Shown one piece after another: positions 41,908 to 43,547 of a DNA stretch of 64,000 bases. Under the pieces are notes generated by a model, which did no database searches, was not told the DNA's origin, and saw only the letters and a list, made by a program, of their open reading frames with translations. The translations under genes and the position numbers were made by a program. Source of the DNA: Escherichia phage UoN_LDJ77_1; sequence record OK570375. One strand, 5' to 3'. Position 1 is the stretch's first letter, and the number at the start of each line of letters is the position of its first letter.

Positions 41908-42687
41908 TTAATTAAAAATATATACTTCATCAGTTCCATTCTTTTCTTTGGAATGATATATGTTAAAGACGTATTTTTTATTAAGATGCTTAACATTATA
42001 TTTTTTAGACCATTCTTTAAGAAGAGTGTTTTCCTTTCCGTGATGCTCTAAAACATTCGACAGTCCAAATTTTATTCCTCTGTCATTTAAAGAATCTAAA
42101 AGATTTAAAAGGTCTTTTTCTTCTTCTTCTGACCAAAATTTATTATAATCAGCAACTGTTATAAGATATGGAGGGTCCACATATACAAAATCGCCGTCTA
42201 GAATTTTGACATCTTTAAAATGCAATGAACTAAAGATTATTTTATCACAATTTTGCTTAAAGTGATTAAAGCGTTTTTCACTATTTTTGTTTATAGTTCT
42301 TTTTCCAAACGGAGTAGTAAAATTTCCTTTATCGTTTATACGAATCATATTACTAAATCCGTGAAAATGAAGAACATAAAGTAAAAGAGGATCTCTAGTT
42401 TTATTATAATCTTCACGTAATTTCAAAAACTCTTCTTTTGATGTTTTTGATAGTTTATATTGCTTTATTACTTTTAATACGTCATCCCATGATACATTAA
42501 TAAGACGCTTATACATTTCAATAATTGGTTCTTGAATATCATTGGCCAATACAGGACCATTGACGTTCAAAGACACTGATAAACCTCCACAAAATAAATC
42601 CACGAATCTGTCATATTTTGGAAAATGAGGCTTAAGTTCAGGTAATAATGACTGTTTATTACCTGTATACGCGATAGCTCCTAGCAT
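41908..42687 (-). CDS. dam: DNA adenine methyltransferase Dam
   Basis: 259 aa; N6-adenine MTase motifs FCGG and DPPY. Confidence 0.88.
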
Positions 42688-43247
42688 TATATTCTCTCAT
42701 TTATTGCAGCAAAAAACGAATTATATAATTCTTCATCATATGTATTTGATAGTAATACTAACACGTTTTGTGATTTAGCATATTCATTAAACCTTGCTTG
42801 GATGGTTGGATTATCAGTAAATGATTCTCTTTTTGTCCATTTATTACGTGGATAATATCCGCATGGCAAAAAATCTAATATCATCAATGACACAGGGTTT
42901 TCAGTTTTTGTGTATTTTTTTAATTTCTCTTTATCTTCTAAATATATTCCAACCGAATCAATAGCTGTACCTCCACCAACTTGGTGTTTAATTTCAATTA
43001 TATGCTTTTTACCGTTGCGAGAAATAACAATATCAAATCTTCTAGTACGCTTCTTAGTTATAAAATTAGAACAAAACAAATTATTTGATTTTTCAGTATC
43101 ATCGGTTAAAACCATTTTTTCTTGATAACTAACTGAACAATCAGTGAAATATTCTTTTACTTTATTAAGTATGAAATTTTCAACTACGGCAGATATTTTA
43201 TATGAATCTCCGTTTAAAGCCATTTCATGTACAATTTTATTAATCAT
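42687..43247 (-). CDS. hypothetical protein, 186 aa, candidate PD-(D/E)xK nuclease, translationally coupled to dam
   Basis: Motif [20 protein letters not shown] fits D-x12-ExK; stop overlaps dam ATG (TAATG); own early promoter at 43273-43302. Confidence 0.6.
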
Positions 43248-43272
43248 TATATCATCCTCAGCAATTTATTTT

Positions 43273-43302
43273 ATAATACCATAACAAGCTGAGAAAGTAA
43301 AC
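43273..43302 (-). promoter_or_regulatory. early promoter for the nuclease-like ORF and dam
   Basis: GTTTAC, 18-nt spacer, TATTAT, 25 nt before the 186-aa ORF ATG. Confidence 0.5.
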
Positions 43303-43346
43303 AAATTTATGAAATTTGTGATAAATATTAATTTAAAGGAGGACAC

Positions 43347-43547
43347 ATGGCACAAAAATTAATGGCACTTGTTGATGCCATAAAAGGTAATAAAAAACGT
43401 ATAGCTTTTACTATTTCTGCTATGGTAGGAATTTTACTCTGGAACTTTATTTTATCACCCATTGCAATTGCACATGGTATTAATATTCCAGTAGTTACTC
43501 TTGATACATTTGTAGATTTAGCATTTGCTTTAGTTGGGTTGATTTAA
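43347..43547 (+). CDS. small membrane protein, 66 aa, divergent from the nuclease-like ORF
   Basis: AAGGAGG SD 4 nt before ATG; hydrophobic; plus strand in an otherwise minus-strand region; 3' end overlaps gene 61 stop. Confidence 0.5.
   Translation: MAQKLMALVDAIKGNKKRIAFTISAMVGILLWNFILSPIAIAHGINIPVVTLDTFVDLAFALVGLI

Follow-up and report, generated by a model that had tools for sequence, protein, structure and literature searches.

Escherichia phage UoN_LDJ77_1 encodes, directly upstream of its DNA adenine methyltransferase gene dam, an open reading frame (ORF) of 186 codons, here called ORF186; both genes lie in a stretch of 64,000 nucleotides of record OK570375 that was analyzed as a whole (the window), is T2-like Tequatrovirus DNA and is, across this region, 99.3% identical to Yersinia phage PYps5T and Escherichia phage UPWr_E4. 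With chances that we put slightly above even, ORF186 and dam make up a restriction-modification-like cassette of two genes, which would be an accessory unit in T4-like phages. The cassette appears to be built on a previously undescribed small family of PD-(D/E)XK proteins and to be carried by virulent T-even phages.

The Dam proteins of T2 and T4 are, to our knowledge, among the best-studied DNA methyltransferases, and we know of no clear account of their benefit to the phage. In most relatives that carry dam, T2 included, Dam is coupled to a conserved restriction-enzyme-like nuclease, and T4 has lost its copy of the nuclease gene by deletion; Dam then resembles the immunity partner in a mobile pair of nuclease and methylase. 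If active, the nuclease would represent a new compact family of restriction-type enzymes and would give a virulent phage a restriction system, with competing phages as its most plausible targets; T2 and T4 Dam would then gain a function in phage-versus-phage conflict, and T4 would be a natural nuclease-deletion mutant.

Nuclease fold and pairing with Dam

Regarding its structure, the AlphaFold2 model of ORF186 (predicted local distance difference test, pLDDT, 76; predicted template modeling score, pTM, 0.78) shows two helices at the N-terminus and then a β-sheet, and it contains the αβββαβ core fold of the PD-(D/E)XK superfamily, with the D...(D/E)xK motif on the second and third core strands: D72 is on strand 67-77, and E85 and K87 are on strand 80-88. 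All nine sequences compared, down to 30% identity, have these three residues, and together with E23 they are unchanged in family members ranging from 98% to 30% identity; the other invariant positions at this depth are Q42, R69, H82, H88, Q89, the segment G93-TAIDS98, P118, S120, and D125. A preliminary description of this region, made from the sequence alone, had noticed a PD-(D/E)xK-like arrangement in a peptide that corresponds to residues 70-89, and the restriction-endonuclease-like fold obtained with AlphaFold2 and Foldseek, with the invariant D...ExK, bears it out.

In the Foldseek search, the top match by TM-score (0.51) was MunI (PDB 1D02), an EcoRI-like Type IIP restriction enzyme of 200 residues, similar in size to ORF186; the fold is alike, but the sequence identity is only 10-12%, and MunI recognizes CAATTG and has a different partner methylase. 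Other fold matches were the Bax1, Hjc-like, and NucS nucleases, and no structural similarity to MutH, of the MutH/Sau3AI-type GATC nucleases, was found. The restriction-type PD-(D/E)XK fold and motif are well supported by the model, and we infer that ORF186 catalyzes metal-dependent phosphodiester cleavage.

At the sequence level, the profile of the ORF186 family found no match among PDB sequences even at an expectation value (E) of 10, the NCBIfam scan gave nothing meaningful, and PHROGs assigns the protein to a family label without function. The family is small, with 10 matches in 5.8 billion clustered proteins and 11 in an exhaustive profile search of 1.8 billion representatives, and in the searches made it is known only from T4-like phages. 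Searches of 185,579 species genomes of bacteria and archaea, of 5,426 complete E. coli genomes, and of plasmids (tblastn, with E allowed to reach 10) returned no relative; scans of metagenomes and viral contigs added only close copies or those of Klebsiella phages. ORF186 is a coding sequence beyond chance because it is conserved in 154 phage records and has a ratio of nonsynonymous to synonymous substitution rates (dN/dS) of ~0.2-0.5 between divergent homologues, for which dS is largely saturated; these substitution patterns show purifying selection.

As for its partner, the product of dam matches the D12 methylase family of Pfam (PF02086, E 6.5e-51) and TIGR00571 of NCBIfam (E 1.4e-69), and it has 100% identity with T2 Dam (record M22342) and 97.7% with T4 Dam, which is encoded at the same locus; the upstream nuclease gene is deleted in T4, whereas here it is intact and coupled to dam. 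Both T2 and T4 Dam methylate GATC. The preliminary description had placed the 186-codon ORF directly upstream of dam, with a stop/start overlap of one nucleotide, and had given it an early promoter of its own. The first statement was confirmed at the TAATG junction (Table 1), and the overlap implies translational coupling of the two genes. The second also held: a generic promoter scan returned 15 sites versus the 16.4 expected from shuffles, that is, the chance level when taken alone, and the call at 43301-43273 is made because the motif, GTTTAC(A/T)...TGnTAnnAT, is kept upstream of the ORF186 homologue in five divergent lineages (MX01, the metagenomic contig L010, two Klebsiella phages, and the P0013 contig); in the record of phage Lutter, a promoter is annotated at the matching position.

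Full-length ORF186 is present in 154 records of the phage collection, and its junction with dam is contiguous in 149 of them, the remaining copies being homologues from Klebsiella (Jiaodavirus) phages with 41-43% identity. In the two Klebsiella phages inspected, the nuclease gene lies directly upstream of a Dam-type methylase gene and overlaps it, and the pair is found between denB and ndd, near rIIB. A D12 methylase is also encoded immediately 3' of the nuclease gene in each of the metagenomic relatives P0002, P0005, P0006, and P0009 (48-63% identity), and it comes next, with overlaps of 35 and 20 nt, in the most distant ones, P0011 and P0013 (30-33% identity); in the P0013 contig the pair occupies a third context, upstream of a rIIA-like gene. 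Altogether, a D12 methylase gene overlaps or abuts the nuclease gene just downstream in all nine lineages examined, at no fewer than three loci (genes 61/56, denB/ndd, and upstream of rIIA). The pairwise identities of nuclease and methylase correlate (r = 0.89), with a faster divergence on the nuclease side, and a methylase gene adjoins every intact nuclease gene seen in the 149 Tequatrovirus/Dhakavirus junction records and in the inspected Klebsiella-phage and metagenomic loci.

In Type II restriction-modification systems, the two genes are adjacent and co-expressed, and the methylase may be solitary but the nuclease may not; here, the pair has one predicted promoter and overlapping or abutting frames across nine lineages, and the nuclease alone was lost on at least two independent occasions. 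This conserved pairing, with a methylase that occurs alone and a nuclease that never does, is at the level of gene content the comparative signature of a restriction-modification pair. The proposal of such a pair in the preliminary description thus stands as to the fold, the predicted coupling, and the conserved pairing; it fails in having counted a nearby ORF of 66 codons as part of the module.

The phage collection has 513 records with a Dam homologue. In a rough neighbor-joining tree, the Dams linked to cassettes group with the derived orphans of T4 and KP179 in a single clade, to which the orphans of RB43, Miro, and JSE are sister. In these three phages dam is upstream of nrdC and is preceded by small ORFs, which were considered as remnants or relatives of ORF186 and rejected, being unrelated on comparison.

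A different pair is found in Klebsiella phage KP179, where the ORF186 homologue at the denB-dam locus (segment 292-1744) is replaced, with Dam encoded next: an ORF of 210 amino acids (aa), with a D...DVK motif and a weak match to Pfam Hjc (E 7e-4), overlaps by 17 nt the gene of another D12 methylase, which carries an MjaIII-like annotation. Such phages may repeatedly couple a small nuclease-like ORF to a D12 methylase.

Table 1. Features of the ORF186-dam region, numbered as in the window
Feature	Position	Strand	Description
ORF186	42687-43247	minus	186 aa; predicted PD-(D/E)XK restriction-endonuclease-like protein; phrog_8706
dam	41908-42687	minus	predicted GATC N6-adenine DNA methyltransferase
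TAATG junction	42685-42689	minus	TAA of ORF186 and ATG of dam overlap by one base
Candidate catalytic codons of ORF186	E23; D72 43032-43034; E85 42993-42995; K87 42987-42989	minus	proposed from invariance
Ribosome-binding site GAGGA	43255-43259	minus	7 nt ahead of the ORF186 ATG; read from the sequence
T4-type early promoter of the nuclease-dam operon	43273-43301	minus	G-TTTACT, 17-nt spacer, TG-G-TATTAT; predicted by consensus scan
Accessory cassette (dam leader, dam, ORF186, promoter)	41868-43335	both	1,468 bp; block missing from RB51-type relatives
Deletion interval	42767-43322	both	8-bp direct repeats TTTGTGAT (plus strand) at 42767-42774 and 43315-43322
Homopolymer T6 (coding strand)	42711-42716	minus	near the 3' end of ORF186; length variable among phages
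Terminator-like hairpin and T-run	43362-43381	minus	3' of gene 61; parts the gene 61 transcript from the nuclease-dam operon
ORF66 (RB32ORF030w / RB69ORF029w, phrog_2024)	43347-43547	plus	predicted small membrane protein of 66 aa
Ribosome-binding site AAGGAGG of ORF66	43336-43342	plus	
Late-promoter-like box GATAAATA of ORF66	43320-43327	plus	

Loss of the nuclease gene in T4 and other relatives

By blastn and alignment, T4 matches the window as far as 42774 and resumes at 43315, with 548 bp missing; these are one copy of an 8-bp direct repeat (Table 1), which reads ATCACAAA on the coding strand, and the intervening 540 bp. The promoter, the ribosome-binding site, and codons 1-158 of ORF186 have been removed, and the 28 terminal codons remain as an 88-bp remnant. 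Because T4 keeps this remnant and the small ORF next to it, its state is a deletion and not the absence of an insertion. The idea that the region might be an insertion relative to T4 is contradicted by the alignment; as for the statement that T4 has no equivalent module, it is right in that the nuclease gene is gone, but the 88-bp remnant is kept and the 66-codon ORF is intact.

A separate deletion, of 363 bp between GATGATAT repeats, has removed codons 1-121 in phage KarlGJung (Bas37) and left dam in place, and Tequatrovirus genomes that have dam without the nuclease gene still hold an ORF186 remnant. RB51-type phages lack the entire 1,468-bp block and have ~40 unrelated bp instead. In a rough tally of ~500 Tequatrovirus-like records, defined by the 66-codon ORF at ≥80% identity and including database duplicates, ~150 have the intact pair, ~33 have dam with a remnant, and ~320 have neither. 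Since the nuclease is always accompanied by Dam, these patterns suggest that T4 descends from phages with a restriction-modification pair of their own, of which its "orphan" Dam is what remains.

Smaller changes affect the 3' end of ORF186, where the length of a T-run on the coding strand (T6 here, T5 in T2 and in the T4 remnant, T8 in KarlGJung) sets the C-terminus and therefore whether the stop codon overlaps the dam ATG. With T5, the product is an allele of 181 aa that ends in NSFLLQ*, with its stop 13 nt before dam and no overlap; the ORF186 of laboratory T2 is this frameshifted form. The 1988 clone of T2 dam (GenBank M22342) contains the whole of ORF186, with only dam annotated; compared with modern T2 genomes it has a 1-nt gap that breaks the ORF186 frame and is probably an old sequencing error. 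An insert of 536 bp 5' of dam in T2 versus T4 was reportedly described by Miner and Hattman in 1988. In the full-text literature searching, no description of the ORF186 gene was found; likewise, no description of a restriction-modification pair in a virulent T-even phage with hypermodified DNA was found in the literature searched.

Among existing annotations, the GenBank record of phage Shinka labels ORF186 as "putative DpnII restriction endonuclease". In the T2 record AP018813 (locus segment 2012-2848), ORF186 is labeled "head outer capsid protein" and the 66-codon ORF is called "putative head morphogenesis protein"; these names seem to have been transferred in error.

GATC specificity, proposed role, and alternative explanations

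The specificity of ORF186 was approached through the DpnII system of Streptococcus pneumoniae (dpnM and DpnII, recognizing GATC), in which, as here, a D12 GATC methylase stands beside a PD-(D/E)XK endonuclease. Pfam models matched ORF186 below threshold (DpnII, E 0.005; BanI, E 0.009), and five of the nine family members matched each of the two models, the DpnII matches again being below threshold, with a best E of 8.3e-5; the REase_II model of PADLOC, for Type II restriction enzymes, gave E 1.1e-4. Genuine DpnII-family proteins were fetched with a DpnII sequence used as a probe only, the top match being 99% identical and carrying PF04556. With their alignment, hhalign placed ORF186 residues 11-97 on DpnII positions 140-226, with E23, D72, and E85 on the invariant E152, D201, and E214, and K87 on N216; the weak similarity is thus one of catalytic cores (RFDxVI...IEx...GxG), with three acidic residues aligned to invariant ones of DpnII, although ORF186 has the classical ExK where DpnII has ExN.

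The differences from DpnII extend to size and setting. DpnII has 288 aa, and ORF186, with 186, lacks both its N-terminal 140 residues and the C-terminal part; unlike the DpnII system, the ORF186 cassette has the nuclease gene first, is without a second, DpnA-type methylase, and is carried by virulent phages while not being found in bacteria. Next to the Dam-like plasmid methylases inspected, the enzymes were of AlwI and FokI type, not members of the DpnII family. The likeness to DpnII is, then, a lead to GATC specificity for ORF186 and not a sign of family membership, and the cassette is probably GATC-directed. Virus-borne nucleases with a protecting methylase have been demonstrated experimentally in a chlorella virus (CviAI/M.CviAI, GATC) and in phage P1 (EcoP1I); like them, the ORF186-dam unit places both halves in a virus, and CviAI shares the presumed GATC specificity, but these systems belong to other protein families.

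On the favored reading, a restriction-modification-like cassette, both genes are made from one transcript immediately after infection, from their own predicted early promoter, and the start codon of the methylase is coupled to the stop codon of the nuclease. The nuclease would cut at or near unmethylated GATC, and the phage genome would be protected by Dam methylation, aided by glucosyl-hydroxymethylcytosine. Enterobacterial hosts are Dam-positive and their DNA would therefore be protected, so that the likely targets would be GATC-unmethylated DNAs in the infected cell, either co-infecting dam-less relatives (dam is missing from about two thirds of the Tequatrovirus records) or other phages whose replication outpaces methylation. 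Like chromosomal restriction-modification systems, the cassette would behave as a selfish or competitive element; its nuclease would be dispensable and repeatedly lost via small repeat-mediated deletions, T4 Dam being the orphan left by one such loss. A further proposal, possible but rather doubtful, is that T-even Dam was acquired, and is mostly still carried, as one half of a phage-borne GATC restriction-modification cassette whose nuclease cuts the under-methylated DNA of co-infecting phages, such as dam-less relatives.

Several points weigh against a GATC restriction-modification cassette. The score of ORF186 against the DpnII model of Pfam (PF04556) is 16.7 bits and the gathering cutoff is 23; the hhalign comparison has a low probability (25%, P 7.6e-4); and ORF186 has no counterpart of DpnII residues 1-139, that is, it does not have the full-length DpnII architecture (~280 aa). 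GATC is the most depleted 4-base palindrome, with an observed/expected ratio of 0.33 in the window, 0.36 in T4 (1-50 kb), and 0.29 in RB51 (1-50 kb); this depletion was considered as evidence of self-avoidance and rejected, being equally strong in T4 and in dam-less RB51, and it gives no cassette-specific support because it is similar with or without dam and the nuclease. Dam-positive hosts and phage DNA with glucosyl-hydroxymethylcytosine would leave few obvious targets for a GATC enzyme blocked by methylation, and the benefit of such an enzyme to the phage is speculative. Finally, the bacterial genomes and plasmids searched contained no member of the family, which is unusual for a restriction enzyme family.

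The alternatives, taken one by one, explain the strict and context-independent coupling to the methylase less well than a restriction-modification pair does. The first of them, itself unlikely, is a free-standing homing endonuclease that would cut a long site in "empty" alleles, with break repair mobilizing ORF186 and dam in the manner of the seg and mob genes and Dam acting as a passenger or masking the site. T-even genomes are rich in homing elements, SegF adjoins gene 56 in T4, close relatives differ clearly in having or lacking the 1.47-kb block, and the pair, with its own promoter, is found at three genomic sites. However, homing enzymes stay linked to their target gene, and here the methylase is the sole constant neighbor while the flanks change; the presence/absence polymorphism characteristic of a homing gene at a fixed site by its target is seen, but the site of the pair differs among genera. 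The co-divergence of nuclease and methylase, the conserved overlapping frames, and the identity of the top whole-protein fold match, the similarly sized Type IIP enzyme MunI, also speak against homing.

Less probable still is a methylation-dependent nuclease like DpnI, which would cut Gm6ATC in cytosine-containing host DNA, Dam completing the methylation of the host and glucosyl-hydroxymethylcytosine shielding the phage. T-even phages do destroy host DNA early, by cytosine-specific nucleases; in Dam-positive hosts methylated GATC would be the abundant target, and the predicted promoter makes the gene an early one. Yet ORF186 is a single catalytic-type domain of 186 aa, without a winged-helix or other methyl-reading domain, and phages with the nuclease only would be expected, as the Dam of the host suffices; none was found. 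In addition, T2 fragments with this region and an active Dam are said to have been cloned in E. coli by Miner and Hattman in 1988, and a DpnI-like nuclease should have killed such clones if its gene was expressed.

To a repair or recombination nuclease that uses Dam marks we give a similarly low probability; it would be a MutH-like nickase acting at hemimethylated GATC or a structure-specific enzyme, serving replication or recombination. The case of MutH shows that a PD-(D/E)XK nuclease can have Dam as its partner, the Tequatrovirus gene has the replication genes 61, 41, and 56 around it, and the fold matches include the Bax1, Hjc-like, and NucS nucleases; but the pair is elsewhere in the Klebsiella phages (denB/ndd) and in the P0013 contig (near rIIA), and the gene is accessory, being missing in about two thirds of close relatives and lost repeatedly with viability kept. 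Lastly, a decaying or noncatalytic relic without present function, to which the losses in T4 and KarlGJung and the frameshifted C-terminus in T2 might point, is very improbable given about 150 records with an intact gene, catalytic residues that are invariant at 30% identity, a dN/dS below 1, and the conserved promoter and coupling to dam.

The 66-codon ORF and the surrounding genes

On the minus strand, the gene order around the cassette is 41, dmd, 61.4, sp, a 61.2-like ORF, 61.1, 61, ORF186, dam, 56, soc. The preliminary description had also reported, on the plus strand, a hydrophobic ORF of 66 codons with an AAGGAGG ribosome-binding site as the lone plus-strand gene of this early region; it is present as described (ORF66, Table 1), and all ORFs of at least 150 aa from 18.7 to 64 kb are on the minus strand. 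ORF66 is coding beyond chance because 692 phage records contain it, from the genera Tequatrovirus, Dhakavirus, and Mosigvirus (~52% identity in the last), including T4, T2, T6, RB14, and RB51, and its conservation was thereby established. The T4 copy is intact (2239-2439 of the T4 locus segment) yet unannotated in RefSeq NC_000866.

The grouping of ORF66 with the nuclease-dam module had to be abandoned: it occurs without dam or the nuclease in RB51, RB14, T6, and Mosigvirus, and in every case it converges on the 3' end of gene 61, to which it is tied instead. Judged from this distribution, ORF66 is a separate conserved gene, independent of the cassette, for a predicted small membrane protein; it has one clear transmembrane stretch, and its Kyte-Doolittle value is ~2.0 over residues 19-41. 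A late-promoter-like box lies 20-25 nt upstream, exact in MX01 (TATAAATA) and with seven of the eight positions here.

The hairpin 3' of gene 61 falls, in antisense, within the first codons of ORF66, so that one stretch is used on both strands; terminators are annotated at the corresponding place in phages ASO78A and fPS-90. Beyond dam, gene 56 is followed directly by soc (41015-41862) without segF, a T2-like arrangement, whereas T4 has segF there.

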